Shown: piece after piece, positions 6,101-40,417 of the stretch
Layout of the letters: every line of letters starts with the position of its first letter
Position numbering within the stretch: the stretch's first letter is position 1
DNA from: Candidatus Omnitrophota bacterium
GTDB lineage: Bacteria; Omnitrophota; Omnitrophia; Omnitrophales; Aquincolibacteriaceae
Length of the DNA stretch: 64,000 nucleotides
Assembly (NCBI GenBank): GCA_043808175.1
Contig: JAZDFE010000004.1
Span: 21 to 64,020 of the forward strand
Direction of reading: 5' to 3'
The notes under the pieces: generated by a model
Told to the model about the DNA's origin: nothing
Seen by the model: only the letters and a program-made list of their open reading frames with translations
The model's database searches: none
Made by a program: the position numbers and the translations under genes

Positions 6101-9100
6101 CCTCTCCCTATATCCGGATATTTCCTCCTGAGGCATCGAGTCGGGGAACGTGATTTTGTAATAGGTCACACTCGAGTCGGGCGATTCAACCCAGATCGTC
6201 CGCGCGCTGGCGCGATACCAAACACCCAGTTGATGGCCCTCATCATGCGCCCGTACCCATTCGACCACATCCGCGTCCACTGGCCGCTCGCCTTCCCGTA
6301 CTTCGGAACGGGTCGCAGGACGCGTTCCTAAAGCAACCGAAAACGTTCCGGCGGTGGTTCCATGGCCCGCAATAGTGCGATGGATGTGCCCGTTTGAAAG
6401 GATCTTTAATAAATAACGGAAAAGAATATAGGCGGACATGAATTGTGGGATCGACCTTTGCGTGTGGGATGCTTGCTCGAACGCAAGACGCGTCATCGAT
6501 AAATATTCGCGGGTTGTTTTTGGAGCAAACCAAATAAGGGCCCCATTCACCGCTGCAAGGGACGCCTCGGAGCGCGAGGCAGCCCAGTCGGAGAGTTTTT
6601 GAAATTCTTCCGGATGCCTCTCGTTCGCTAAAGCTAAGAGCAGGTTCGGCTGAATGCCAAAATCCTGGAAATAATCCATCCAATCATCAAGATGCTGACA
6701 GAAAATCGCTACTCCGTGTAGCAACGATTCTCTCACCCGAAGCTGGACCGGATCGAGCTTTTGAAACACTGACGCTGCGATTTGTATCAAAGGGCGGAAA
6801 TCGTCTTTTTCGGTAAAAATTTCGCGCGTGCCTTGAAACGACGGGAAAAGCCCCGTCTTTCTTTCGAGGAGGTAAGAATGCAGGAACAACCGAGAATTTT
6901 GCCAGAAGGCGTCCCGTACAACCTCCCGTTCCTTCTCATCAAGCGGTGTTGAGAGAAGGGCTTGTTCAAAGCGCTCCGGGAACGAGTTAATGATCTGGAG
7001 TCCATCCCTGGAATCTGAAGGAAATACCGCGGAGAACGGCGAGGCTCGAAGCTCTTCTGCCCCAACCTTCGAATGAAGACGCAGATCGATCCTCCGGGTG
7101 TGATCCGCACCAGCGAGAATTTCCGTCATCTCGTCAATGGACAGCCGGCTTCCAAAACGGTCCAACAGGTCGTCGCCGACCATCATGTACTGGGACCATA
7201 ACCAGAAAAGACGATCAAAACCTTTGGCGTGCGACTCTTCGGGGGTTATCTCGAACAATTCGATCAAAAAGTAATAAAGGCCCGCCGCTCGGGTCGTCAG
7301 CTTAACACCCAGTTGGCGGCTCAGCTCCCGGTCCCGGGCAGACCCCTGCCATATGTTCCAGCCAATCCGCAGAGGAGAAAACCATTTTAAAGCCTTTGGA
7401 GTTCTGGCCTCTCCGGGTTCCACCGCTCGATCGCCTTCCCTCATTTCCGAGCGTTTGTTTTCCGCCGACCGGGTGCCACCATCCCTTACCAGCCCGTGCT
7501 CCCGCATTGTCCGGATCTGTAAGTACACGCTATCAGATACCGGAATAACCGGGTCAAACCATTCCTTCAATTCCCCCTGTCCGTCATAGGTCGCATTTGA
7601 CTCTTTTGCGTCAAAGAAAAACAGCGTGCGGTAACGTTCCTTCGCGGCCGTATACCATTCACGGTAAGAACGATAAGCCCGATTGACCTGGGGAGAGCCC
7701 GTTCCGAAGCGTTCAATCAGTTCGGACAACATAAAACCCTTCGCCTTTCTTTGTCGGATCCGGGTCGGTGATTCGAGGCGAACCGTCAAGACCGGAAATC
7801 CATCATCATGCATCTTTTGATGAGCGGCGACGAGGCGACGCGCAATTTCCTGCCGTTCTTCTTCTGAAATAGGCAGAACATCCCCTAAAACATCTTTTAC
7901 CTCTTTCACCATATCGCCGCCATCAGGCCAAACGGTTAAAAACCAGCCTCCGCTGAAGCCGCTCAAAGACGGCTGCTGGACATTCTGCAAGAGCCCCGCG
8001 TCTCCCCTTGATTTGGAGCGGGCTGTATCAGGAGCGGACACAGCAGGAGCTACTTCCGGACCGGTTATGTCCTGTCTCACGCTCAGGGTCAGAGCCTTGG
8101 CAGCACCAAATTCAACGGTCATGGGAACGGACGTTTCACGAGTCTGATCTTCCGTGAGACTCCGCAGAAAAGAGGTTTCAGCAGTATTCGCGGGCGCGGC
8201 GATTGCCGTGTTCTGCGGGGTCAGCATCCTTGGAATGAAGCGCAATGCCGGCTTTCCATCTCCCGCCAGAGAGCTCGCCTCAACAGCGCCTGAGAGGACG
8301 GGATGGCTGTTCGCTGCCTGCGCGACAGCTGATGCAATGCGGGCAGGTTCCATTTTGTATTTTTCAAAAAGGACCGGCGCCGCCGTTTCGAGTAGTTCCT
8401 TGAAAAAGAGAGCCTCCTGTTTAGTCGAAAATGGATTTTTGACCTTGAAATAAGCGCTGAGATCGGCATGATCGCCGGCCATCACTTTTTGATAAAGTTC
8501 CCCGCGATCCGTGCGGCTGATATGCGGCGTGAGCGTCGCGTAACTGATCTTTTGTTCTCGAAGTAACGTGTCGATCCCCCCCGTATGAAAGCCCCCGGTG
8601 ATCAAGACAACGATCCTCTGACGCTCCTTCGGTGACGTCCCCCCCAAAGCCAGAGCATTTTCCATGAGTGCCCGGTCCCTTTGAAGGGCCGTCGCATAAA
8701 AATGTTTTGCGCGCTCAAGGAAGTTCCTCAATTCCGGCGCTCCTTCCACAAAAGCTTCCAAGTCTCCCCGCTCCGCTTCGCTCCGTTCGTACTCCTCCCG
8801 CGTCAGCTCCAGAAAGAGTAATTTTTCGAAGAGATGAAAGACCTGCAGTCGCCGGACAAGCTTTTTTTCCGCGTCGGTGCGAGCGAGCTTTTCGGTCAGA
8901 AGCGTTTCCAGGGAATTCATTTCCTGAAGAAGACCGGCCGCCTCCATTTCGGCTTGAAAAATGACCGGTTCCAGACTCTTGAAAAAAGAATCATGCCCGG
9001 TGAATGCCAAGGAATGCTTTTTCGTAAAAAGGAACAATTGCTCCAGAAGCTTTCTCGGGTAGAGGGCCGCGTCCACGGTCGCGGGAACCGGTGCTCCGCC

Positions 9101-10165
9101 CTGCGGCTCCGTCAAAAAACCTTTTCCCAAGCCAAAAGAGCTCAAGGCGCTGACGAATTCCAGGTCCGCGTTCTTTGTCGCGACTGCCTTGAGCGATGCA
9201 AGAACGTTTTTCCAATCTTCACGAACTTTTGTGTCATCGAGCCCCTTTTGCACTTCCCCGGCCAGAATGATCCGGACAAGGTTCGGGAAACGCAGCTGTT
9301 CGAGGGGATCTTTGAGATCGATCTTGAGGAATTTCAAAGCCTCCTTTTTCAAGTAAAGAACGTAAGCCTGAAGATTGGGGCCTCCGCTGACACGGTCCGG
9401 AGCGTACCTCCCTTCTTTGCGACGGTCCCGCTCATTCAGAAAATCCCGGAGGTTCGCGTTCAGGGTCCGAGAAATCTCAGTCTGAAATCGGGCCCGCAAA
9501 GGGGTTAAACGTGCCTGAATCTCGTCGCGGCTAAAAAGAAGTTCCCGGTAGGTCTTTAAGTTCTCACGATAAAGTTCCGCATTCTCCACGCCGCGAACCG
9601 GAATGACAGCGTCCCCGGACTTTGCTTTCTCGACATCTTGTCCGCTAATACTTTGCGGTGCGTCCTGCAGGTCCTGGAATTTTCCCCAGGCAAAAAGTTC
9701 CGCACCGCCAAGCTCTCCCTTTTGACGAAGGTCCTCGATGACGGCCTGGCTGGCTTCGGGAAATTCATGGAAAAATTGAAGGTATTCAGGATGAAGCGGA
9801 CCCGCGGCGCCCTCGATGCCGATCGCAAGGTCCGGATATTTCTTCGCTAGAAATTTGAGGATCTCAGAAATGTTTTGCTGGGCTTCGGGATTGGCGTGAG
9901 CATCCTGGATATGGACCACAAAACTTCGATGAGAAGTTCCGGCGGGAGGTTTCCAAGAGGACACGAGAGAACCGAGTTCGGCGGGCATGGCGTAGAGGTC
10001 TTTGAGAAGTTGGGTCTGCGCTTTGACTCCGCCTGCCGGATCAAAAACTCCGGCGGAAGCAAAAGCTTGAGGCAAACCTCCCGTGAGAGTGGTCATTGTG
10101 AAAATGATGGCCACAAACAAAGAAATCCCCCTACGAATCCAAGGCTTTTGAGATAAGGTTGCCAT
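1..10165 (-). CDS. Giant multidomain protein of unknown function; N-terminus complete, C-terminus runs off the left window edge (at least 3388 codons in window)
   Basis: Not in the supplied ORF track. Hand translation of the minus strand from ATG 10165..10163 (MATLSQKPWIRRGISLFVAIIF...) stays open. I checked it codon by codon at more than a dozen places from 10165 down to 1, always in the frame whose first codon base is at a coordinate equal to 1 mod 3. The track lists no ORF starting at 10165, which it would if an in-frame stop existed inside the window. All track ORFs in 1-10200 are 224 aa or shorter and in other frames. The last codons in the window read ...EKILVVDDEVAMATIATRVLMRAGFKVTMVHSGEDALEKLKEFMPD. 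Confidence 0.85.
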   Translation of the reverse strand, partial: MATLSQKPWIRRGISLFVAIIFTMTTLTGGLPQAFASAGVFDPAGGVKAQTQLLKDLYAMPAELGSLVSSWKPPAGTSHRSFVVHIQDAHANPEAQQNISEILKFLAKKYPDLAIGIEGAAGPLHPEYLQFFHEFPEASQAVIEDLRQKGELGGAELFAWGKFQDLQDAPQSISGQDVEKAKSGDAVIPVRGVENAELYRENLKTYRELLFSRDEIQARLTPLRARFQTEISRTLNANLRDFLNERDRRKEGRYAPDRVSGGPNLQAYVLYLKKEALKFLKIDLKDPLEQLRFPNLVRIILAGEVQKGLDDTKVREDWKNVLASLKAVATKNADLEFVSALSSFGLGKGFLTEPQGGAPVPATVDAALYPRKLLEQLFLFTKKHSLAFTGHDSFFKSLEPVIFQAEMEAAGLLQEMNSLETLLTEKLARTDAEKKLVRRLQVFHLFEKLLFLELTREEYERSEAERGDLEAFVEGAPELRNFLERAKHFYATALQRDRALMENALALGGTSPKERQRIVVLITGGFHTGGIDTLLREQKISYATLTPHISRTDRGELYQKVMAGDHADLSAYFKVKNPFSTKQEALFFKELLETAAPVLFEKYKMEPARIASAVAQAANSHPVLSGAVEASSLAGDGKPALRFIPRMLTPQNTAIAAPANTAETSFLRSLTEDQTRETSVPMTVEFGAAKALTLSVRQDITGPEVAPAVSAPDTARSKSRGDAGLLQNVQQPSLSGFSGGWFLTVWPDGGDMVKEVKDVLGDVLPISEEERQEIARRLVAAHQKMHDDGFPVLTVRLESPTRIRQRKAKGFMLSELIERFGTGSPQVNRAYRSYREWYTAAKERYRTLFFFDAKESNATYDGQGELKEWFDPVIPVSDSVYLQIRTMREHGLVRDGGTRSAENKRSEMREGDRAVEPGEARTPKALKWFSPLRIGWNIWQGSARDRELSRQLGVKLTTRAAGLYYFLIELFEITPEESHAKGFDRLFWLWSQYMMVGDDLLDRFGSRLSIDEMTEILAGADHTRRIDLRLHSKVGAEELRASPFSAVFPSDSRDGLQIINSFPERFEQALLSTPLDEKEREVVRDAFWQNSRLFLHSYLLERKTGLFPSFQGTREIFTEKDDFRPLIQIAASVFQKLDPVQLRVRESLLHGVAIFCQHLDDWMDYFQDFGIQPNLLLALANERHPEEFQKLSDWAASRSEASLAAVNGALIWFAPKTTREYLSMTRLAFEQASHTQRSIPQFMSAYILFRYLLKILSNGHIHRTIAGHGTTAGTFSVALGTRPATRSEVREGERPVDADVVEWVRAHDEGHQLGVWYRASARTIWVESPDSSVTYYKITFPDSMPQEEISGYRERLLKALQIVSKPYDSEGWGYDKEEITRIANAALSEVISGGAVVNQGLLFGGLTDTSAAGAARSEVRREQTGQGGWFDRTVAWLQRKADRAPERINPRNYPGRYDALINYLEHQSHVPLSSLKGKSVVDGGSSRGYATLDLAQRLAELGTGVRVYGVDPGEHGGQIEGADPDSLRRDLNLEFIQDDHRLMQAGSAIKGIKIFLSFNVLNHYDRRTLWPMIEQMAEKIENRGLLVIGSGGPQDIVQDLDTQEELIAFDPVDHDSQFLVFQKTDTGLVIRELVFRGLKDDSDRLSRWIPYLGPLWSRDLKAPFQRLDEEMEDVKQRVSKKFWHYDPDVIKEHRPEEERMIHDAKLKHLKKLHPGVKELSDGTVILPLLPLIFRYEPERGFFGRIFRGKALAFLMLGLGAEVFDHAQRGSRNRTEPNIDEDQGDHRSEMRNNAQLEAGAEDVRSEMRSPDNGTPKKTEQFLKGRKILHVDNDPDDRELVKSSLEVFGAEVISVAKGSEALKILEKENIDALVADAHMPEMTGAELIRQIQQKGLKVKSIMATREDRAGRNNLFWELEAKIPVVTKYGIIKALRELFDPGIKSALEMKRSEARGNSGIMTERFAALMDPVKRTQMGVSKIIFSIGPGDGQFEAALARDPRYVVVAADPYGREYPGYHWGFLDHSLAIQREAVLRDNLVLFNADFEKILKDVPDGMLDAIVLLHPEPEPLAKFLADPGYIAKLKMGGKVYIKPYHLAIYHSDAIKALQKDRGYQQQKGSFLFSVDVNKSFRENTPFYIFKKSTDGIPATDLLDENVTNLPAALIARNGLFRGLPAEQKDLLERMLNYFPPLDISRGIHGALAEVLKRGNLSGVALQQEVGLALARLMAEQIKSRAVVEASLGRRRAEMRTAPGGTGLARRGRGDSDAGSELHLPVIGDAPSLRSSKRGLPDVEGQERERRDEDRRGSSKIRGNSREPEAEEASLGYRRAEMRDNSQSSDGAMRDQERPDIDRLTNEDVVKALSIKVKKKVILDTGKADYVARWLLDKESSEMLPTNVLQDVFYYIVRVRAQNRADEILLRLISRKLQRVLNISEEQTVSLFDWLRDYDVFLRGISPAVFEDFFKTYSRHYRMDRKPETRFFYNLPQGIDSEAKIVMATRNMKRMESLFSPGFLTRQFVLAAHIEGTPYLLGMRYGSVKGSSGVSVFLDKVASGRTQRIYHIALDTQLTQGGEALRIVMMNGVRGQENEIKHIFPGEFGFRPGVALLHVALALAQKEDFGALMGIKAEYIPYQKNMEANVAASYDRLKLTEGRGKGEYARWKKVSDLLEKVLPALKERFGKGMQRMTAAFENLEAIKLDQLDDFIKKEFPANGPQVEVKRSEVRIEEKVIDVTTMTPGALENLRALTERGFLEGGQPISMGLLTRSYEMPVVLPELELAGRRNFLKMAGMVGVFGAVWLALGGATTFAGQVRKPAAAARPSGTVSTDAASQAMRVMNQVRYATSLEPLQFNDWNGTKGNVIATVLGELNSFAEQWKRMPKQDVAPEKLGEMHRAFFQNLAQRINSGIRFPEGYGLDYVRAAARLIHKDLPQFFAAQGLVFNVKGVSVENLTMQVTQGGKVVRSQDYFYPMLTMPDKYFFVLKANARRDLKMPPQVLGDERTPLILVQPVRIQIGGGQVRFSPYAEQWREGQRNELGFADGVTAFLRADFIEQALKYDRASLEKVDLGFLAEDLSLRDVITGVRVGEPTVTQGKKTIRVISFPVTNLNATVEYAAMKLMVAAIRSLDKGKTVFDFGLWHLARYLETAKHEITHVNDSHRVVWRTLWQMIQPASDRQVPRKDIDDAERLIEQNARLEAFKEVPAVYLVSLLATIQSEIWPVLNSDKAQADILAAVSKELNRNPIRYGIDVVETGLKVEVLQKPKPGEKVSSRAAVTLDKNTQIMAQFYRIAEKSDRVEALYTAVREALNIDARAQALAAKYAFLDPGAPSSGRSEMRQDRQPLEKPIEKILVVDDEVAMATIATRVLMRAGFKVTMVHSGEDALEKLKEFMPD
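719..733 (-). other. HExxH motif (HEITH, followed by VNDSH) in the C-terminal module of the giant protein
   Basis: Translated in frame: ...FDFGLWHLARYLETAKHEITHVNDSHRVVW... This could be a zinc-metalloprotease motif, but such a short motif could also occur by chance in a protein this long. Confidence 0.25.
1748..1870 (-). other. Internal twin-arginine (Tat) signal-like segment or internal TM helix, at about residue 2778 of the giant protein
   Basis: Codon-by-codon translation of 1921..1742 gives LEGGQPISMGLLTRSYEMPVVLPELELAGRRNFLKMAGMVGVFGAVWLALGGATTFAGQV. RRNFLK matches the Tat consensus (S/T)-R-R-x-F-L-K. It is followed by an h-region of about 20 residues and an A-x-x-x-A-G end. An in-frame ATG lies at 1870..1868. 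Confidence 0.55.
3790..4240 (-). other. Methyltransferase-like module 2 of the giant protein (TrmB-like pattern)
   Basis: Hand translation gives KIIFSIGPGDGQFEAALARDPRYVVVAADPYG...NLVLFNADFEKILKDVPDGMLDAIVLLHPEPEP. IGPGDG resembles motif I, and LLHPEPEP resembles the FPDPWPK-type motif of N7-G methyltransferases. Boundaries are approximate. Confidence 0.4.
4345..4693 (-). other. CheY-like receiver (REC) domain 1 inside the giant protein
   Basis: Hand translation gives KILHVDNDPDDRELVKSSLEVFGAEVISVAKGSEALKILEKENIDALVADAHMPEMTGAELIRQIQQKGLKVKSIMATRED. This shows the acidic pair, the phospho-acceptor context (D-x-H-M-P-x-M-x-G) and the conserved T. It begins about 17 residues after the RSEMR copy at 4745-4759. 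Confidence 0.7.
5390..5750 (-). other. Class I SAM-dependent methyltransferase-like module 1 of the giant protein
   Basis: Hand translation gives ...LKGKSVVDGGSSRGYATLDLAQRLAELGTGVRVYGVDPGEHGG...NRGLLVIGSGG. VVDGGSSRG (5702-5728) resembles Rossmann motif I (VLDxGxGxG) and VYGVDP resembles post-I. Module boundaries are approximate. Confidence 0.5.
10054..10165 (-). other. N-terminal signal peptide or signal anchor of the giant protein
   Basis: Hand translation gives MATLSQKPWIRRGISLFVAIIFTMTTLTGGLPQAFASAG. It has a basic n-region containing RR, a hydrophobic core of about 20 residues, and an AFA-S cleavage-like site. Confidence 0.6.
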
Positions 10166-13248: not shown

Positions 13249-13429
13249 CGATCGCTTCGGTCCTTTAAGGTAATGCTTTTGGGAATAGATAAATTGAGTA
13301 AAAAAATCACACCTTTTCTGAACCCGGATTGGACTCTGACCGGCCCGCCCACGCAGGGGCCTGCAGAAAACGCGAGCAATCTTCTATGTTCTTCCTGATT
13401 TAAAATTTAACCGTAATACGGCTTTCAAA

Positions 13430-13798
13430 TTAAATGGCATTGTTGGCATGACCGTCTGCGCTGAGAAGGGGGGGAAAGGTCGTGCCGGCGTCATCACGCT
13501 CCGTCCGGTAATAATCCCCAGGAATAAAATACCCCATCCTAAGGTTAATATCCAGATACTTCGTCGCTTCCCAAAGAGCGCCGAAATCGAACTCATTGCC
13601 AAGGTCTCTTGAGAGCTTCTTGGACTCCCCGTTCCAAAAACCCTCTCCTTTTTCAAAAGACGAAAAATGCCACCAGTTGAATGAAAATGTGATCGCCAGA
13701 TAGGGGGTGATGTCCAGCCCGAGGTTCGGCGTGATGAGATTCTCAAACTGGACAGGATCGTTAAAAGTGCCCGGACGGAGAACACCGGGGTTGTTTTC
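13430..13798 (-). pseudogene. Start-less C-terminal remnant (122 codons) of a beta-barrel outer-membrane protein (alginate-export/porin-like)
   Basis: Hand translation of the minus frame ending at TAA 13432..13430 gives ENNPGVLRPGTFNDPVQFENLITPNLGLDITPYLAITFSFNWWHFSSFEKGEGFWNGESKKLSRDLGNEFDFGALWEATKYLDINLRMGYFIPGDYYRTERDDAGTTFPPLLSADGHANNAI*. It shows an alternating beta-strand pattern and is bounded upstream by TGA at 13801..13799, only 58 nt from the rlpA stop. There is no ATG, GTG or TTG start that would give a sizeable product. The overlapping track ORF 13384..13857 is R/S-rich and not protein-like. Confidence 0.35.
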
Positions 13799-13859
13799 TC
13801 ACGCGTTTCCCATATAAAGGAGCGAGCCTTTTGGAGATCAACCGTTTCTTTTCCCACAT

Positions 13860-14324
13860 TTAGTCATTAAAGGGCATTACGGAAACCGTCACGAGCCCCT
13901 TTCGCGGATCCGAGATCTTCTTGAAAGCTGCGCGGGTCAGGTCGATCGCGCGGCCCAGGCGTTTGGCCGGACCCCGGTCGTTGACCACGCAGATCACGGA
14001 TTTCCCGTTATCCAGATTCGTGATCCTCAGACGGGTTTTGAGCGGGAACTTCCAGGAAGCGCACGTCATCCGCTTATCATCAAAGATCTCAGCACTGGCC
14101 GTGCGTTTTTTGATCTTGGGGCTTGACTTGCTGTACCAGGACGCCGTTCCTAACACGACCGGGGGCAGTCCCAGGGCCATGTTCTCTTCCCCCGAGGACG
14201 GCATCTGGATCACCGAGGCAACCGGAAGAGTAGCTTCCTGAAGGGCGGAGGTGAGACTTGGGGAAACGAATGGACTCGTTACAAACACTATCAGAATGAG
14301 CGAGCGCCTGATCCCTTGTTTCAC
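13860..14324 (-). CDS. rlpA: Septal ring lytic transglycosylase RlpA-like protein (DPBB domain), GTG start
   Basis: Signal peptide followed by GTASWYS...TASAEIFDDKRMTCASWKFPLKTRLRITNLDNGKSVICVVNDRGP...RAIDLTRAAF, the hallmark RlpA double-psi beta-barrel pattern. Confidence 0.85.
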   Translation of the reverse strand: MKQGIRRSLILIVFVTSPFVSPSLTSALQEATLPVASVIQMPSSGEENMALGLPPVVLGTASWYSKSSPKIKKRTASAEIFDDKRMTCASWKFPLKTRLRITNLDNGKSVICVVNDRGPAKRLGRAIDLTRAAFKKISDPRKGLVTVSVMPFND

Positions 14325-14339
14325 GAGAAGTGCTCCTTC

Positions 14340-14504
14340 CCGGCGACCCAGCTTCCCTCACGAGGGTCGATTCCCTGCGTGTTCGGGACTGTGGCTTTGC
14401 AACGGGAGCGACGTTCATCGCCGCTCCGATGTCCCGCAAGTCCTACTGATCTTGCGGAACGCCTCCTGATCTCTCAGGATTTGCCCTTACTCAAAGCGTG
14501 CTCT
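14340..14504 (-). promoter_or_regulatory. Structured GC-rich 5' leader of rlpA; candidate ydaO-yuaA (c-di-AMP) class riboswitch
   Basis: The minus-strand RNA has three strong hairpins. The first is CCUGA-GAGA-UCAGG (plus strand 14465-14478). The second is CCGCAAG...CUUGCGG (14434-14457). The third is GGAGCGGCG-AUGAA-CGUCGCUCC (14405-14427). There is also a mutually exclusive AGGG/CCCU/AGGG trio just before the SD GGAAGGAG. Segments AAAUCC[hairpin]GGAGGCGUUCC, AAGAUCAGUAGGAC and GUCCCGAACACGCAG...CCCUCGUGAG resemble my recollection of ydaO conserved blocks (AAUCC..GGAGGAACC, AAUC..GUAGGGA, CCCGAA..CAGCUAACCUCGUAAG). No covariance-model search was run. Confidence 0.4.
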
Positions 14505-14571
14505 ATAAAGTATTTTTTTACAAGCCCGTAGCGTAAAAAAGTTTTGCGCAAGGAAAAGTCCGGATGGATTT

Positions 14572-15945
14572 TTAACTATGGGATATTGGGAACGCGAGAC
14601 GGAGGATCGTCCCCTTTCCAAGCGTTGATTCCACCTCAATCTTTCCCTGATGCATTTCCACGATCTGCTTCGTGATGGAAAGACCCAATCCCGTTCCCTT
14701 CTTCTCCCGGCTCTTGGCGTTACTGGCGCGGTAGAATTCTTCAAAAACATGCGGCAGATCTTCTGCCGGAATGCCGATCCCCGTGTCTTCGATCCGGATG
14801 GATACCCAATCACCGGATGCAGCGACTTCAAAAACAATCTTTCCTCCAGCGGGGGTATATTTCAGTGAATTTTTGAGTAAATTCAATAATGCTTCTTCGA
14901 GGTAGACTCTCACTCCGCGGATCACGATGGGAGCATCATCCATTTTGCACTCGAAAGCAAGCTGTCTGTTTCTAGCCAATTCACTGACCTGTCCCGAGAT
15001 ATCTCGCACAAGCTCATTAAGGGAAACGGATTCCATTGTGAGCTGCTCGGTCAGCTTGAGTTTTGTAATATCCAAGAGAGCATCAACATAAACGATGAGC
15101 TGGATGCTCCGTTCTATGGCTCGATGAAGCAAATCCTCTTGAGCGCTACTGAGAGGTCCCGTGATCCCCATGGTCACTGGTTCAATACAACTTTGGATCG
15201 CCGCAAGGTCTTGGCGAATATCATGGGTCACCCGCAAAACGTACTCGCTTTTGATCTTGTCTTTTTCTCTTAAAAGTCTGTTGACCGCGGCCAGGTTTTT
15301 TTCTCTTTCGCGAAGTTGGGCGGAGATCGATGTGGCCAAAAAGACGGTGATATAGAGGGTGCTTATAAAAACAAACGACACTCCCATGCCATAGAAAATG
15401 TTTTCGTGCAAAGGATAGGAATAAATGGATCGGAGACAGTGATGCGGAAGGATCCCGGAGGATTCCGAAAACATAAGCAGAAAAAAAAGAAAGACGGCGT
15501 AGGTGGCTTGAAAAAAAGACGCCCTTCGTGTCAACAGAATGCTGGCGAAGATCATATGGAAGATAAAATAAAAAATAAAGGGATTTTCGATCCCGCCTGA
15601 AAAATGGATCAGATAACCGAGGCAGGTCAGGTCAATGGAGATCTGGACATTCGCAAAGAAATGAATCCATCGCTCTGAAAACGAAAGCTTCTTTCTCTTT
15701 CGAAAAGAAAGGACAAGAAAAAGAGCAGCATTGTAAAGAGCCAGGAATGCGGCCGTCCCATACATGGGCGCAGTATTGAGGAAAAGACGATTGTGAAATA
15801 TCCGGGGCAACAGGAAAGCGACGCTCAACACGCCCGCGGCAGCGACCCACCGAAGGCGAATAAGCCAATAAACACGCTCGAGCAAGTAATCGGATCGCCC
15901 GATATCGTCCCGGCCTTTTCGCATGCAGCCTCTCTCGGAATTCAC
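14572..15945 (-). CDS. Membrane-bound sensor histidine kinase
   Basis: N-terminal multi-TM region, H-box VTHDIRQDLAAIQ, and HATPase_c motifs DTGIGIPAEDL and GTGLGLSITKQIVEMHQGKIEVES. Confidence 0.9.
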   Translation of the reverse strand: MNSERGCMRKGRDDIGRSDYLLERVYWLIRLRWVAAAGVLSVAFLLPRIFHNRLFLNTAPMYGTAAFLALYNAALFLVLSFRKRKKLSFSERWIHFFANVQISIDLTCLGYLIHFSGGIENPFIFYFIFHMIFASILLTRRASFFQATYAVFLFFLLMFSESSGILPHHCLRSIYSYPLHENIFYGMGVSFVFISTLYITVFLATSISAQLREREKNLAAVNRLLREKDKIKSEYVLRVTHDIRQDLAAIQSCIEPVTMGITGPLSSAQEDLLHRAIERSIQLIVYVDALLDITKLKLTEQLTMESVSLNELVRDISGQVSELARNRQLAFECKMDDAPIVIRGVRVYLEEALLNLLKNSLKYTPAGGKIVFEVAASGDWVSIRIEDTGIGIPAEDLPHVFEEFYRASNAKSREKKGTGLGLSITKQIVEMHQGKIEVESTLGKGTILRLAFPISHS

Positions 15946-15974
15946 AGCGCTAAAATCAGGAAGGAGACCTTGCC

Positions 15975-16364
15975 CTATTTCGTTCCCAGCAATTTGCTGA
16001 CTTTTTTAAGCAATGCATCATGATTAAGAGGCTTTGCGCAATAGTCCTCGACGGGCAACCAGTCTTTATCTCCCGCTTCTTTTTGAAAATCCAAGCCCGT
16101 TTTATCTTTGATGGCCGTTAACATAAGGATGGGAATACGTTGGGTTTGGGGGTCCTTTTTTATTTCTCTTGCAATTTCAAACCCGTCCATCCCCTTGGGC
16201 ATCATTATATCTAGGATAATAAGGTCGGGCTTTTCCTTTTTCGTCCGCGTCAGCCCCTCCAAACCGTTGAAAGCGCTCGTGACGCCATACCCTTGGCTTT
16301 CCAGCACCACCCGGATGGATTCCACAATGTCCGGATCATCATCAATGATCAATACTTTTGCCAT
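15975..16364 (-). CDS. Single-domain response regulator (CheY-like receiver)
   Basis: KVLIIDDDPD...DLIILDIMMPKGMDGFEI...ILMLTA...KP; 129 aa with no output domain. Confidence 0.9.
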   Translation of the reverse strand: MAKVLIIDDDPDIVESIRVVLESQGYGVTSAFNGLEGLTRTKKEKPDLIILDIMMPKGMDGFEIAREIKKDPQTQRIPILMLTAIKDKTGLDFQKEAGDKDWLPVEDYCAKPLNHDALLKKVSKLLGTK

Positions 16365-16489: not shown

Positions 16490-17449
16490 TCATAAAGCAC
16501 GGGAAGTTCCCGAAGCGCCCGCAGCCGTGACTTTCTGAATCAATGTCCTCAGCAACGTCACGATCTTAGGATGGCAAAGAACGGTTCCTGCGCGCAGGTA
16601 TTCCATCCCCGATTTTTCGATCACTTCGCGCGCCGCATGGTCCAGGTCATAGAGGATCTCGGCATGGTCGCAAAGAAAACCAAGCGGCACGACCAGGACC
16701 CTTTTTTCACCCCCCGCCGCCAAAGAATGGATCTTTTCTCCGATCTCAGGACTTAACCATGCCGTTTTGGCCGACACCGGACGGGATTGATAAGCCACGG
16801 CCCATTGCTTGTGCCCCAATCGCTCCGCCACAAGGGCGCTCGAGACGCGGGCTTCCTCCGCGTAGCAGGACATCGAATCAGCCGGATCACGGCAGACCGG
16901 CAACGAATGAAATGTGAACAGGATCGGAGTTGCGACGCGTTCCACGGGATCGATCGCTTGCAACACATGTGAGACTTCTTCGGCCTCCGCCTCGATAAAA
17001 AGCTTTTGATCGTGCCATCCCTCGATCCATTGATAACTAAGATCGTTCATTTCTGAAGCAGAACGGACGGATTCCAGACTTTTCTGGTATCCGGCTCCAG
17101 ACGAAGCCGACGGGAAAGGCGTAAGCGGAATGGCAAGTCCTTTCCGGAAACCCTTTTGATAGATCTCCGGCAGGACATCCTTGAGAAAAGGATGCCAATT
17201 TTTCATTCCCGCGAAGACCGGCAGCGAGATTCCCGACGAACGGAGTTCCTGTTCCAAACGGACTTTGAAGTTTGAAACCTGCTCGTTGTACGGCGAGCCT
17301 CCTCCGATCACTTCATAGTGCTTGGCGACAGCCTTCAAGCGATCTCCCGGAACCCCCCGTCCTTCGCTCATCGCCCGGAGATAAGGCATGACCTCTTCTG
17401 GTTTGGAAGGTGCGCCATATCCGACAAGCAGAACGTGATCGAATTTCAT
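16490..17449 (-). CDS. hemH: Ferrochelatase (protoporphyrin or coproporphyrin ferrochelatase)
   Basis: Ferrochelatase pattern (MKFDHVLLVGYGAPSKPEEVMPYL..., FSLHSLP-like FTFHSLP, CDHAEILYDLD). The likely start is ATG 17449, 1 nt after the hemY stop; the longer track start at 17503 overlaps hemY. Confidence 0.85.
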   Translation of the reverse strand: MKFDHVLLVGYGAPSKPEEVMPYLRAMSEGRGVPGDRLKAVAKHYEVIGGGSPYNEQVSNFKVRLEQELRSSGISLPVFAGMKNWHPFLKDVLPEIYQKGFRKGLAIPLTPFPSASSGAGYQKSLESVRSASEMNDLSYQWIEGWHDQKLFIEAEAEEVSHVLQAIDPVERVATPILFTFHSLPVCRDPADSMSCYAEEARVSSALVAERLGHKQWAVAYQSRPVSAKTAWLSPEIGEKIHSLAAGGEKRVLVVPLGFLCDHAEILYDLDHAAREVIEKSGMEYLRAGTVLCHPKIVTLLRTLIQKVTAAGASGTSRAL

Positions 17450-17450
17450 T

Positions 17451-18914
17451 TCAGTGTTTCTCCAAAACAGGGCCGCTTTTTTGCGCATGTTCCGGTCGCA
17501 CATACTTCATGATGGCATCCGCCGCGAACTCAGCGCTTTTGACGCAGTCCGGAACGCCGATGCCGTTGTAGGCGTTCCCGGCAAGATAAAGCCCCGGAAA
17601 GACGGCAAGCTGGGAACGGATCGATGCGACATGGCTGAGATGGCCAACCTGATATTGGGGCATGCTTTGCGGATAACGGCTGACGGAAGTAAACGCCGGC
17701 CGGGCTGTGACCCCAAGATAATGACGCAGCTCTTCCATCACCGCGCGGACCATGGCATCATCTTCCAATGCGTACACCTCCCGGTGGAGCGCGCCTCCTA
17801 CGAAAGTGCGCAAGAGCGCCATTCCTTCGGGAGCACGACCTACAAATTTCACGCTCGAAAAACTGCAGGCCACGATCTTCCTCCGGGTGAACGCAGGGAC
17901 CACGAAGCCGAACCCCCCCAGCGAATGCGGAATATCCTGGCGACGGTACGCGAGATTGACCGTAGCGACCGATTCGTATGGGACCGCCGCGAGGTCGCGT
18001 GAAAGAGAGGGCGCCGGTCCCGCAAGAAGCCGGGCCGCCTGCGGGGCCGGCAAAGCGATGCACACGGCATCCGCATCAAACGTATCGCCTTGCTGGGTCA
18101 TGACCTCCCAATCGGCGGATCGCTTGATTTCTATCGCAGAGGAAGACACCTCGAACCGGACCTTCGGCAGCTTCGACACGATCGTTCGCGTCAATTGTTC
18201 CATGCCGTTCTTGTATGAAAGGAAAAGACTGTAACGCGGGCCGCTTGCAGCCTTGGCCGCGTTCTTTTTCCCGAGCTTCTTCCGCGTAAAAAGTCCGCGG
18301 ATTACGCTGCCATAATGACGCTCCATTTCAAGGAATTGCGGCATGGTCGCTTCCAGGCTCAAATGTTCCGGATCTGCGGTATAGATGCCTCCGATCATGG
18401 GTTGGGCGACCTCTCGCAGCGTGGTCTCGCCGAACCTGCGCCGGACAAAACTCCCAACGCTTTCATCCCCTCCCCCTGGACGTTTGGGAATGAAAAGTTC
18501 GCACCCCATCCGGAGTTTGGTCGCCAAGTCAAGGAGAGGCGTTTGGATGAATGCCTGGATCTGCGACGGCGCGATCAAATAGAAACCTTCGGGAACTTGG
18601 ATCAGTTTCCCGTTTTTGTAAATAAAACTGCGGCGAAATTTTTCGTTGGTCCCGATCACTTCCTGCGCGATTCCGAGACGCTTGGAGAGTTCCAGGGCCG
18701 CGGGTTTCTCTGAAATAAAGGAATCCGGTCCGCCTTCGAGGAGAAAACCTTCTTGGAATCTTGTTTCGATCACGCCGCCAAGACGCGACTTAGCTTCCAA
18801 AAGCGTGATCTCAAGCAGAAAAGATCCTTGCCGGGCGAGCTCCGACAAACGGTAAGCAGTCACAAGACCCGATATCCCGCCGCCGATGATGATGACCTTT
18901 TGGGGAGTGGCCAC
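17451..18914 (-). CDS. hemY: HemY-type FAD oxidase (protoporphyrinogen/coproporphyrinogen III oxidase)
   Basis: N-terminal FAD fold KVIIIGGGISGLVTAYRL, 487 aa, and operon context between hemE and hemH. Confidence 0.85.
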   Translation of the reverse strand: MATPQKVIIIGGGISGLVTAYRLSELARQGSFLLEITLLEAKSRLGGVIETRFQEGFLLEGGPDSFISEKPAALELSKRLGIAQEVIGTNEKFRRSFIYKNGKLIQVPEGFYLIAPSQIQAFIQTPLLDLATKLRMGCELFIPKRPGGGDESVGSFVRRRFGETTLREVAQPMIGGIYTADPEHLSLEATMPQFLEMERHYGSVIRGLFTRKKLGKKNAAKAASGPRYSLFLSYKNGMEQLTRTIVSKLPKVRFEVSSSAIEIKRSADWEVMTQQGDTFDADAVCIALPAPQAARLLAGPAPSLSRDLAAVPYESVATVNLAYRRQDIPHSLGGFGFVVPAFTRRKIVACSFSSVKFVGRAPEGMALLRTFVGGALHREVYALEDDAMVRAVMEELRHYLGVTARPAFTSVSRYPQSMPQYQVGHLSHVASIRSQLAVFPGLYLAGNAYNGIGVPDCVKSAEFAADAIMKYVRPEHAQKSGPVLEKH

Positions 18915-18916
18915 AG

Positions 18917-19960
18917 CTACCTTGCACTCAGCTCATGGACCAGATTGATCAGGCGGATCACATTGTCGACCGGCGTTTGAGGCACGATGCCATGTCCTAA
19001 ATTAAAAATATGGCCCGGTCTTCCATGCGCCTGATCCAGGATTTTCTTCACCTGGGCTCTCAGTTGATCGACAGGCTCGCAGAGCGCCATAGGATCCAGA
19101 TTTCCTTGAATGGCAACATCATAGCCCACCCGCTTCCAGGCCTGATCCAGCGCGATCTGGTGATCCACACTGATCACATCTCCCCCCGCTTCGCGGAACA
19201 TTTTAAGAAAAGGCCCTGTGCCCGTACCGAAATGGATCACGGGAATTCCTTTTTGGATCCCCTGGATCACGACGCGGGTGTGCGGTAAAACATATTCGCG
19301 GTACTCTCCGGGAGCGAGGCATCCGATCCAGCTGTCAAAAAGCTGGATCGCATCCGCACCGGCCTGGATCTGGCCGTTGATGTAGCCGACGACGGCGCGG
19401 CTGATCTTTTCCATGAGGGCATGCCAAGCGACCGGCTGGGAGGTCATAAAATTTTTCGCCTTGGAAAAAACGCGGGAGCTTTTTCCTTCGAGAATGTAAG
19501 CCGCCAAGGTGAAAGGCGCACCGGAGAATCCGATGAGCGGGATATCCGGCTTGAGACATTCGCGCGTCTTCCGGACCGCATCAAAAACATATCGAAGCGA
19601 CTGGGCCGCATCCACTTCCGAGATCCGGTCCACATCTTCCCGTGACTCCATCCGCCCCGTGATGACCGGTCCGCCTCCTGAGGTGTATTCCAAACCGAAC
19701 CCGAGAGGCTCGAGAATCAGCAAGAGATCGGAAAACAGGATCGCAGCGTCGGCTCCTATCCTTTCCTGGGCCGTCACGGTCACTTCCGCGCAAAGGTCCG
19801 GGTTTTTGCAAAGATCGAGGAAGGATACCTTATCGCGCACTTCGCAGTATTCTTTCATGTAGCGCCCGGCCTGCCGCATGAGCCAGACCGGCGTAAACGA
19901 GGTTTTTTCGCGCCAGCAAGCTTTCAGGAAAGGTGACACCTTGGGAGAATCCATGATCAT
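18917..19960 (-). CDS. hemE: Uroporphyrinogen decarboxylase
   Basis: The [15 protein letters not shown] motif and overall URO-D pattern. The likely start is M43 of the track ORF (ATG 19960), forming an ATGA overlap with the upstream radical SAM gene's stop. Confidence 0.9.
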
Positions 19961-21099
19961 TTCCTGGTCCCGGAAGGAACCGGCTGGTAGGAACAACAAG
20001 GCTCTTCCGCCAGATAATCCCCCGTAACGGCATAGGTCCTGGAACGTGAGCCGCCGCAAAAATCCTTGTAGGGACAGATCCCGCATTTCCCTTTAAGGCA
20101 TGCCGGATCACGAAGTTGTTTGAGCAGAGGAGAGTTCCTGTAAATCTCGGAAAGATCATTTTTCCGGAGATCACCGGCCTTCAGCGGAAGGAATCCGCTC
20201 GGAAACACCTCACCCCGGGAGGATACGAAGAGAAACCCCTTGCCTGAATTGACGCCTTTGGGCGCGAGTCCGATGCTCCCGCCCGGGCCCTCCGCGCGGC
20301 GAAGAAGTTCCGGCAAAGTGATCTGCCCCCCATCGATCGTGCGGGGGTTGATCCCCCGTTCCAACAATTTTTGCTCGAAGACATATTTTCGATAATGTTG
20401 GGCTTCCGTCACTTTAATGACAAAAGGGACGCGCTTCTGCAGGGCATAGATCTTTTCGAACGCCTCATCGAACTTCGCGGCGCTTAAAAGATCCAGATCC
20501 GCGCCCCGGCCCGTCGGAACGAGAAAGAAAACTTCCCAGAAAACGATCGGGAGAGATTCGACTAGAGCGATGAATTCCTCGAGCTGGCGGCTGTTATGCA
20601 CATTGATCAAAGAATTGATCTGGGCGGCAAGCCCGCATGATTTTGCGATCTTTACGCTCTCAAGGGTCTTGGCGAAAACCCCCGGGGTTTTCCGGAAGGC
20701 GTCGTGATCCGCGGCATTCGGGGCGTCCAGGCTGAATGCGATCTGATCCAGCCCCGCGTCCTTCAATTCGCGGATCCTTGCTTCGGTCAAAAGCGGTGTC
20801 ACGGCCGGGATCGCCCCGGTTTTCATCCCGAGCGATTTGCCGTACCGGATAAGTTCGTTCAACCCTTTTTTCTTTAGGGGATCACCGCCCGTAAAGATCA
20901 GGATCGGAGTCCCCATCTCGCGGACTTCCCGGACAAGGCGCATACTTTCTTCGAAGTTCAGCTCGTCCGGGGCCGGTTCCGATTGGGCCGAAGCGCGGCA
21001 ATGGACGCACGCGAGGTCACAGGCATTCGTGGTCTCCCAGCAGACCAGGAACGGTCTTTGATCGAAATCGAAATTCGAGAAATCCATCTTTTTTTGCAT
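19957..21099 (-). CDS. Radical SAM/SPASM enzyme of the AhbD/AhbC/NirJ family (candidate anaerobic coproheme decarboxylase)
   Basis: CxxxCxxC cluster in the context [18 protein letters not shown], an FFLVPTGRG motif typical of the NirJ/Ahb group, and a Cys-rich C-terminus ([21 protein letters not shown]). Embedded in the haem operon. Confidence 0.7.
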
Positions 21100-40344: not shown

Positions 40345-40417
40345 TGAGCCCGGATGGATTCGAACCATCGACACCCGCCTTAAAAGGGCGGTGCTCTACC
40401 AACTGAGCTACGGGCCC
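40345..40417 (-). tRNA. tRNA-Lys (anticodon UUU)
   Basis: The minus strand reads GGGCCCG TA GCTC AGTTGGTA GAGC A CCGCC CTTTTAA GGCGG GTGTC GATGG TTCGAAT CCATC CGGGCTC A. This folds as a full cloverleaf with a T-loop TTCGAAT and anticodon loop CT-TTT-AA. No CCA is encoded. Confidence 0.9.

Follow-up and report, generated by a model that had tools for sequence, protein, structure and literature searches.

Leaders of the ydaO-yuaA class sense a cyclic dinucleotide and often stand before cell-wall hydrolase genes. In the SAM-III/SMK box, preQ1-II and SAM-II riboswitches, the helix formed by the Shine-Dalgarno sequence (SD) and the anti-SD lies within the ligand-stabilised fold, and there is no separate expression platform. 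Within GEMM-I riboswitches, an A at position 20 alone separates the cGAMP-selective GEMM-Ib type from the c-di-GMP-selective ones. The GEMM-I architecture comprises a P1 of 2-bp and 6-bp stems with a 3-nt internal loop and a GNRA loop, an AAA linker and an adjacent P2 (PMC1950547). In the Vc2 aptamer, whose numbering we use throughout, G20, A47 and C92 contact the ligand: G20 contacts one guanine of c-di-GMP and C92 pairs with one guanine, while C44 and G83 form an inter-helix pair and the pair of A48/A49 with U90 adjoins the pocket (PMC11705072). G14 of Vc2 pairs with C93 and adjoins the ligand guanine paired to C92; ligand binding forms P1a and represses translation (PMC11705072). We compare here the leader of an rlpA-like gene with these systems.

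A structured leader before an rlpA-like gene

The DNA analysed is a 64-kb stretch (64,000 nucleotides, hereafter the window) from a Candidatus Omnitrophota bacterium, in which positions 14322..14523 of the minus strand hold the promoter and 5′ leader of an rlpA-like mRNA. The rlpA-like gene (13860..14324, minus strand) has a GUG start and encodes a 154-aa product with a signal-peptide-like N-terminus and a DPBB_1 domain, recognised by Pfam at 53.4 bits for a cut-off of 28.8. In sequence this product resembles the RlpA family, though it stays under the cut-off of the NCBIfam model TIGR00413 (67.7 bits for 82.15); its N-terminus has no lipobox Cys and a SPOR domain is also absent. A protein identical to it has been recorded for a MAG designated Candidatus Omnitrophota bacterium. 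On the upstream side, the spacer is bordered by the gene of a PilS-like histidine kinase (14572..15945, minus strand) and, as originally predicted, it is 247 nt long, from the kinase stop at 14572 to the rlpA-like GTG at 14324. It had also been described as GC-rich, which is true of its structured part (60% G+C in 14322..14490) but not of the spacer as a whole, whose 53% is close to the mean of the 64-kb window (52.5%), the promoter-proximal part having about 44%.

The leader RNA (14488..14322, minus strand) reads 5′-AAGGGCAAA...CUUCUCGUG. Folded on the minus strand, the 266-nt leader reaches −98.1 kcal/mol, compared with −78.3 ± 4.6 kcal/mol for 200 dinucleotide shuffles, none of which was as stable (0/200; z = −4.3). 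Three strong minus-strand hairpins had been drawn in the spacer, and they are indeed present, at 14479..14464, 14460..14431 and 14427..14405. The strings that had been read as an alternative-pairing trio were also found, as AGGG, CCCU and GAGGGA, all of them within a long hairpin (14396..14345) followed by the purine-rich SD.

Identity of the aptamer

This spacer had been proposed to contain a ydaO-class c-di-AMP riboswitch. The model of that class, RF00379 (ydaO-yuaA), matched nowhere in the whole 64-kb window at its gathering score, and it did not match 14200..14700 on either strand even at E ≤ 10. The case for ydaO was made of short strings, taken for its conserved blocks, and of its known association with cell-wall hydrolase genes. 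The strings do occur in the sequence, but all of them are parts of a c-di-GMP-I aptamer, namely P1b, the loop of an inserted hairpin (hpA, below) and P2. Although both RNAs are of a cyclic-dinucleotide class, the leader has a different fold from ydaO-yuaA and matches it neither in sequence nor in structure. We therefore rejected the ydaO-yuaA class, to which we attach practically no probability.

The comparison with Rfam yielded instead a sub-threshold match to RF01051 (c-di-GMP-I), the only relevant one in the permissive scan (E ≤ 10) of 14200..14700, at 23.3 bits and E = 0.022. This match spans the full model (14495..14339, minus strand), with 79 nt of the window occupying the place of a 19-nt hairpin of the model. 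It falls short of the RF01051 gathering score of 35 bits and, by Rfam's rule, the window element is not a called member of the family. The entire window clade scores 24–29 bits with RF01051 (29.0 for L161 and 28.6 for L162, against 23.3 for the window), below the curated threshold, and is therefore invisible to routine annotation.

The elements of the GEMM-I architecture are all present and covarying: P1b with its 2-bp and 6-bp stems, 3-nt internal loop and GNRA loop, the AAA linker, and the adjacent P2. P1b (14461..14484, minus strand) is made of a 2-bp base (G21, C22), an AAA internal loop, a stem UCCUGA/UCAGGA capped by a GAGA tetraloop, and G-G-C44. Its stem, UCCUGA-GAGA-UCAGGA, is the first of the three strong hairpins given by the fold (14479..14464, minus strand). 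G45 and C46, which pair with C22 and G21, are followed by A47 and A48 of the GCAAA junction (14397..14400, minus strand). The P2 hairpin (A49..C90; 14345..14396, minus strand) has an A82-G83 bulge in which G83 is invariant, is supported by 15 pairs in covarying helices, and houses the AGGG/CCCU/GAGGG strings mentioned above. The window has a GAA/A internal loop in P2 and the GAGA tetraloop in P1b; the 11-nt tetraloop receptor is absent from window P2, and receptor-less GEMM types are known (PMC1950547). The exception in this architecture is the 3′ side of the P1b internal loop, where 60 nt forming two hairpins have been inserted.

Taking together the sub-threshold RF01051 match, the above-threshold matches of orthologous leaders and the covariation over 27–48 sequences (both below), we conclude from sequence that the leader is, by descent and by its pocket nucleotides, a divergent c-di-GMP class I (GEMM-I) riboswitch, with c-di-GMP binding predicted. 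Two features of the class are missing from it: a simple P1b hairpin, and a P1a made from the 5′ and 3′ tails.

Conservation of the element before rlpA-like genes

Our set of rlpA-like loci comprises 80 from species-representative genomes (Omnitrophota MAGs in nearly all cases), 80 from metagenomes and two close relatives (89% and 86% protein identity). Canonical orthologous leaders match Rfam RF01051 at 63.7 (L003), 58.5 (L052), 57.8 (L030) and 57.6 bits (L024), whereas insert-bearing leaders pass more narrowly, at 48.6 (L073), 43.3 (L077), 42 (L004), 40.7 (L047) and 36 bits (L009). The orthologous leaders in this range of 36–63.7 bits either lack the insert or carry a shorter one. Two alignments were used: A3, which contains 27 leaders, and A4, a model-fitted alignment of 48 sequences (47 relatives and the window). 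In A3, the GGCAAA-hairpin-GAC and GCAAAGCC...GGGUUGCC blocks are common to all leaders, the window differing by the block between them, and an unbroken series leads from canonical to insert-bearing copies.

We tested A3 on the structure written from the canonical L003 copy. In this test, 96.9% of the cells pair and 17 of the 30 pairs change on both sides; none of 500 column shuffles matched the observed pairing, a count that is not a probability since the relatives share ancestry, and slid controls on A3 paired at 34–53%. A4 gives 21 pairs with both-side changes, although a model-fitted alignment leans towards its model. Helices 2 and 3, which form P1b, are 99–100% paired, with both-side changes in 5/6 pairs; the tetraloop columns read G-N-R-A, GAGA in the window, and G45/C46 pair with C22/G21 in 48/48 sequences of A4. 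In P2, helices 4 and 5 comprise 15 pairs, with both-side changes in 10 of them (A3) or 12 (A4). The covariation check on homologous rlpA leaders thus supports a conserved structure, with 17–21 pairs showing double changes, and the frequency of G-U pairs indicates that the RNA lies on the gene's strand.

A covariance model built from A3 (R1, whose E-values are rough, the window being in the seed) has a single hit in the 64-kb window, at 14322..14490 (minus strand). Applied to the rlpA-like loci, R1 detects the element at 47/99 and 26/63 of them (73/162 in total), in every case immediately upstream of the gene and on its strand. The fallback of the original prediction, a conserved cis-regulatory RNA before rlpA, thus holds well beyond the window: the presence of such an RNA before rlpA-like genes across many Omnitrophota is strongly supported by the RF01051 matches and by covariation over 27–48 sequences.

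Nucleotides of the binding site

The status of the ligand-binding positions was read from the columns of A4 (n = 48). The G20 equivalent lies at 14485 (minus strand), in column 6, which holds G in 44 and A in 4 of the 48 sequences. A47 (14398, minus strand) is an A in 48/48, and the whole A47, A48, A49 run of the GCAAA junction is likewise invariant (48/48). C44 and its partner G83 are invariant in A4 and both occur in the window. G91 and C92 are found at 14343..14344 (minus strand), C92 being at 14343 and invariant in 48/48. The A at position 20 was seen in four rlpA-leader aptamers, at L021:1865, L078:1245, L096:736 and L097:992, where each coordinate is the first base of AGCAAA.

The window departs from its relatives at the U90 position, where it has a C (14345, minus strand). 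The corresponding column of A4 (359) holds U in 47 sequences and C in the window alone; L161 and L162, whose leaders are about 90% identical to that of the window, keep U90. Judging from these sequences, U90C may weaken ligand binding in the window; alternatively, it may be a tolerated substitution or an assembly error of the MAG.

Hairpin pairs inserted in P1b

In the window, two flush hairpins, hpA and hpB, stand between C44 and G45. The 30-nt hpA, GUUCCGCAAG...CUUGCGGGAC, starts right after C44 (14431..14460, minus strand) and is supported by its fold energy. hpB, taken with its short flanks, ends right before G45 (14401..14430, minus strand); its 23-nt core folds as GGAGCGGCG-AUGAA-CGUCGCUCC (14427..14405, minus strand). 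With both hairpins placed between C44 and G45, P1b becomes a four-helix junction.

A two-hairpin module is present at the same site in 25 of the 48 sequences of A4 (47 relatives and the window). These C44/G45 modules are 41–64 nt long and differ in sequence between lineages, while the GUYC...GRAC base of hpA is conserved; each of the 25 inserts (25/25) forms a pair of flush hairpins when folded (z between −1.6 and −7.5). Five sequences have a second kind of module, in which two hairpins are placed inside the 5′ strand of the P1b stem. Two leaders, L019:1732-2003 and L104:1278-1503, have both kinds of module and hence four extra hairpins in P1b.

A joint MAFFT alignment of both insert-bearing clades (A2) was discarded: it misaligned the inserted hairpins, and the clades were therefore analysed separately (A5, A6). 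In the sister clade (group B), covariation in the inserts is significant, with 6 pairs changing on both sides and 0/500 shuffles doing as well. In contrast, hpA and hpB show no significant covariation within the window clade (group A), whose sequences are too similar (147/500 shuffles were as good). The support for hpA and hpB in the window thus comes from their fold energy and from the two-hairpin form being kept across lineages, not from within-clade covariation.

Promoter and predicted 5′ end

When 31 leaders are aligned without gaps on G20, they show a TTGnnA element, 17 nt, and a TGnTAnnTT element ending 10 nt before G20; the 17-nt spacer varies in sequence while both elements are fixed in position. 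In the window, the −35 element is TTGTAA (14518..14523, minus strand), in agreement with the TTGnnA conserved at −38..−33 from G20, and the −10 element is CACGCT (14495..14500, minus strand), the hexamer at −15..−10 from G20 where relatives have TGnTAnnTT. CACGCT is a weak match, in which A2 and T6 of the hexamer are retained. The leader was also searched with generic promoter and terminator scans, which returned nothing useful and did not call the window −10.

Counting 7 nt from the −10 position, transcription would start about 3 nt before G20, near 14488, which gives a predicted mRNA 5′ end of AAG (14486..14488, minus strand), equivalent to the A17-A18-G19 joining strand. With such a start, the usual 5′ strand of P1a would be missing. 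The upstream sequence agrees with this, a canonical 5′ P1a strand being absent from window-type leaders: the energy of pairing between the tail that follows C92 and the 12 nt preceding the 5-nt joining strand is +1.2 to −5.4 kcal/mol in these leaders. The same pairing reaches −9.1 and −7.1 kcal/mol in the canonical-type L047 and L077, where the 5′ strand of P1a is normal and the joining strand has 5 nt. What complementarity exists in window-type leaders is weak, U-rich and offset from the joining strand, and falls in the predicted −10/discriminator region.

A hairpin holding the SD and the G of the start codon, a proposed stand-in for P1a

Directly after C92, the window has a 7-bp hairpin, CGGGAAG-GAGCA-CUUCUCG (14324..14342, minus strand), whose last base is the G of the start codon: the partners of C93-G99 are the first base of GUG and the six bases that precede it. 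The SD, AAGGAG (14338..14333, minus strand), is inside this hairpin, shared between its 5′ strand and its loop. The hairpin has a ΔG of −8.8 kcal/mol in the window, and it abuts C92 with zero spacer in all of the 30-odd leaders of the window's type. This helix 6 is 95–96% paired, with both-side changes at 2 pairs in A3 and 4 in A4; among the compensatory changes, the fourth pair goes from G-C to A-U and the last pair from G-C to C-G or U-A. In most window-type leaders, the MFE structure pairs C93 with the G of GUG; this pair never varies and is therefore not itself supported by covariation.

Every window-type leader has GUG as its start codon, and among the 33 checked leaders ending on GUG, this codon shares the frame of the DPBB ORF in 31; AUG is the usual start (13 of 17) of relatives that have a terminator or a 5′ P1a strand. 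The constant use of GUG would be accounted for by a pairing of its G with C93. Given the behaviour of P1a and G14 in Vc2, we infer by analogy that the 3′ hairpin replaces P1a and that the G of GUG is the equivalent of G14. We found no conserved alternative fold that would free the SD. A pairing of the anti-SD CUUCUC with the 3′ strand of P2, GAGGGAAG, can be drawn on paper and was set aside, as no MFE or ensemble calculation favours it.

Proposed mechanism and alternatives

We consider it probable that the whole is a divergent GEMM-I leader in which P1a is replaced by the SD/start-codon hairpin and through which c-di-GMP switches translation OFF. The mRNA would begin about 3 nt before G20, without the usual 5′ strand of P1a. 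On binding the aptamer, c-di-GMP would stack on the C93:G pair, which would lie beneath the pair of C92 with a ligand guanine, and would lock the SD/start-codon helix; the locked helix would lower translation of the RlpA-like protein. The sign of the regulation and the dynamic range of this predicted OFF switch are uncertain, since folding predictions yield the SD hairpin even when no ligand is present and the search for alternative folds gave none that frees the SD. More tentatively, we propose that GEMM-I has been rearranged here as a type, with an mRNA that starts inside the aptamer 2–3 nt before G20, a P1a supplied wholly by the 3′ side, and recurrent pairs of hairpins in P1b. If this is true, the translation-initiation region directly closes the ligand pocket, and the repeated flush hairpin pairs, found at two sites of P1b and sometimes at both, represent a modular expansion of a riboswitch beyond the standard models.

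The same aptamer could also act as an ON switch, the ligand raising rlpA translation, for instance because the SD is posed accessibly in the loop, the 5′ end is shielded from decay, or C93-G96 is pulled from the SD hairpin. The GAG core of the SD is indeed in the loop, with a high unpaired probability, and an ON logic was proposed for many GEMM elements by Weinberg 2007 (PMC1950547). Terminator-type leaders add to this, as their GAAUAG copies the 3′ strand of the terminator and encloses the aptamer, the simplest reading of which is ligand-promoted antitermination. However, C93-G99 has no competing partner in the transcribed 5′ part, the hairpin abuts C92 without a spacer just as P1a does, and the ligand-induced P1a of Vc2 represses translation (PMC11705072); an ON switch is thus an unlikely reading of the window.

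The substitution at position 90 raises another explanation, that the aptamer of this particular genome is degenerate: U90C would disable or weaken binding, and the leader would be left as a structured, constitutive 5′ UTR that contains an SD hairpin. The uniqueness of the window's C among 47/47 relatives with U, its cost of about 5.5 bits with RF01051 relative to L161 and L162, and the position of the U90 pair next to the pocket in Vc2 (PMC11705072) all speak for degeneration. All the other conserved positions and helices are nevertheless intact, which argues for a recent change or for tolerance, and the C could be an error of the MAG assembly. Moreover, C-A can stand in for U-A in trans Watson-Crick/Hoogsteen pairs, and we regard degeneration as improbable. 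A different ligand, such as 3′3′-cGAMP or another dinucleotide, with the four-helix P1b reshaping the pocket, seems highly improbable to us. It would suit the unusual architecture of P1b and the four relatives with A20, the mark of cGAMP-selective GEMM-Ib, but the window has the c-di-GMP signature of G20, A47 and C92, the inserts lie outside the pocket, and canonical copies free of inserts occupy the same position before orthologous genes.

Comparison with known riboswitches

The window shares with Vc2 and RF01051 the parts of P1b, the GCAAA junction, the A-G bulge of P2 and the nucleotides G20, A47, C92, C44 and G83, as well as a place in the 5′ UTR of a gene for a secreted or envelope protein and a helix directly 3′ of C92 that is coupled to translation. 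It differs from them in having no 11-nt tetraloop receptor, a C at U90 and a score below the gathering threshold, and in lacking the 5′ strand of P1a, whose place is filled by the 3′ hairpin with the SD and the G of GUG. Its ligand class is an established one; the departures lie in the proposed rearrangement of P1a, in four-way-junction modules that recur, and in an association with a cell-wall enzyme throughout the phylum. In the literature searched, we found nothing on GEMM-I before rlpA-like genes, in Omnitrophota, or with such P1b insertions.

As proposed, the SD helix of the window is part of the ligand-stabilised fold, as in the SAM-III/SMK box, preQ1-II and SAM-II riboswitches. Those riboswitches have unrelated folds and ligands, however, and the helix in the window would take the place of GEMM-I P1a and includes the first base of the start codon. 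If true, the replacement of P1a is among the most compact couplings of ligand to translation for the GEMM-I class.

Other Omnitrophota leaders (L003, L043, L047, L073, L077 and others) have the downstream gene family and the aptamer core in common with the window. L047, L073 and L077 also carry a two-hairpin module at C44/G45, yet they score above the Rfam threshold and, unlike the window, possess the normal 5′ strand of P1a as well as a joining strand of 5 nt. The L043 type differs from the window in that its P1b is short, its loop is GAAA and is matched by a CCUAAG..UAAGG receptor, its start codon is AUG and an intrinsic terminator is present. This terminator group, in which the GEMM-I aptamer is short and canonical, is composed of L043:1778-1945, L029, L027, L060, L037, L032, L056, L057, L063, L064 and L041; in most of its members other than L041, a conserved leader GAAUAG/GAAUAU copies the 3′ strand of the terminator and may be an antiterminator that encloses the aptamer. 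On the Weinberg 2007 model (PMC1950547), the terminator-type relatives may be ON switches.

The messenger assigned to this leader is corrected, on sequence grounds, from c-di-AMP to c-di-GMP. This change leaves intact the connection that the original prediction had drawn from a second messenger to a gene for cell-wall remodelling: it would now join c-di-GMP with a secreted RlpA-like (DPBB) protein acting on peptidoglycan, across a poorly known and largely uncultured phylum. The leaders also offer natural experiments on a well-studied aptamer, in the form of four-way junctions in P1b and of the apparent replacement of P1a by an SD/start-codon hairpin.

Gene neighbourhood

A motif scan of the 64-kb window for GGDEF, EAL, HD-GYP and PilZ returned two weak GADEF strings only; the one checked, in an ORF at 8834..9508, has no Pfam match, and no GGDEF, EAL or HD-GYP gene was seen within the window. 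Upstream of the leader, 14572-16364 (minus strand) encodes the histidine kinase, whose 6TM domain is PilS-like, as well as a stand-alone receiver protein; a generic scan found no strong terminator between the kinase gene and the riboswitch promoter. Farther upstream, 16490-20086 (minus strand) holds heme-synthesis genes (ferrochelatase, an amine-oxidase-type oxidoreductase and URO-D). The sole Rfam match at gathering level in the window is a tRNA gene at 40345-40417 (minus strand).

Downstream, a 157-aa ORF (13384-13857, minus strand) has a GTG start that overlaps the rlpA stop codon (GTGA). Neither Pfam nor NCBIfam gave a match for this ORF, whose composition is oddly rich in S, R and T, and it may not be a real gene; the generic scan gave no terminator-like site between rlpA and 13159. 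Synteny on this side differs among close relatives: L161 and L162 have a cold-shock-domain gene just 3′ of rlpA, and none follows the rlpA of the window. Sub-threshold matches to the cspA thermoregulator (gathering score 78) stand before that cold-shock-domain gene, at L161:1162-1601 (47.7 bits) and L162:2075-2364 (24.9 bits).
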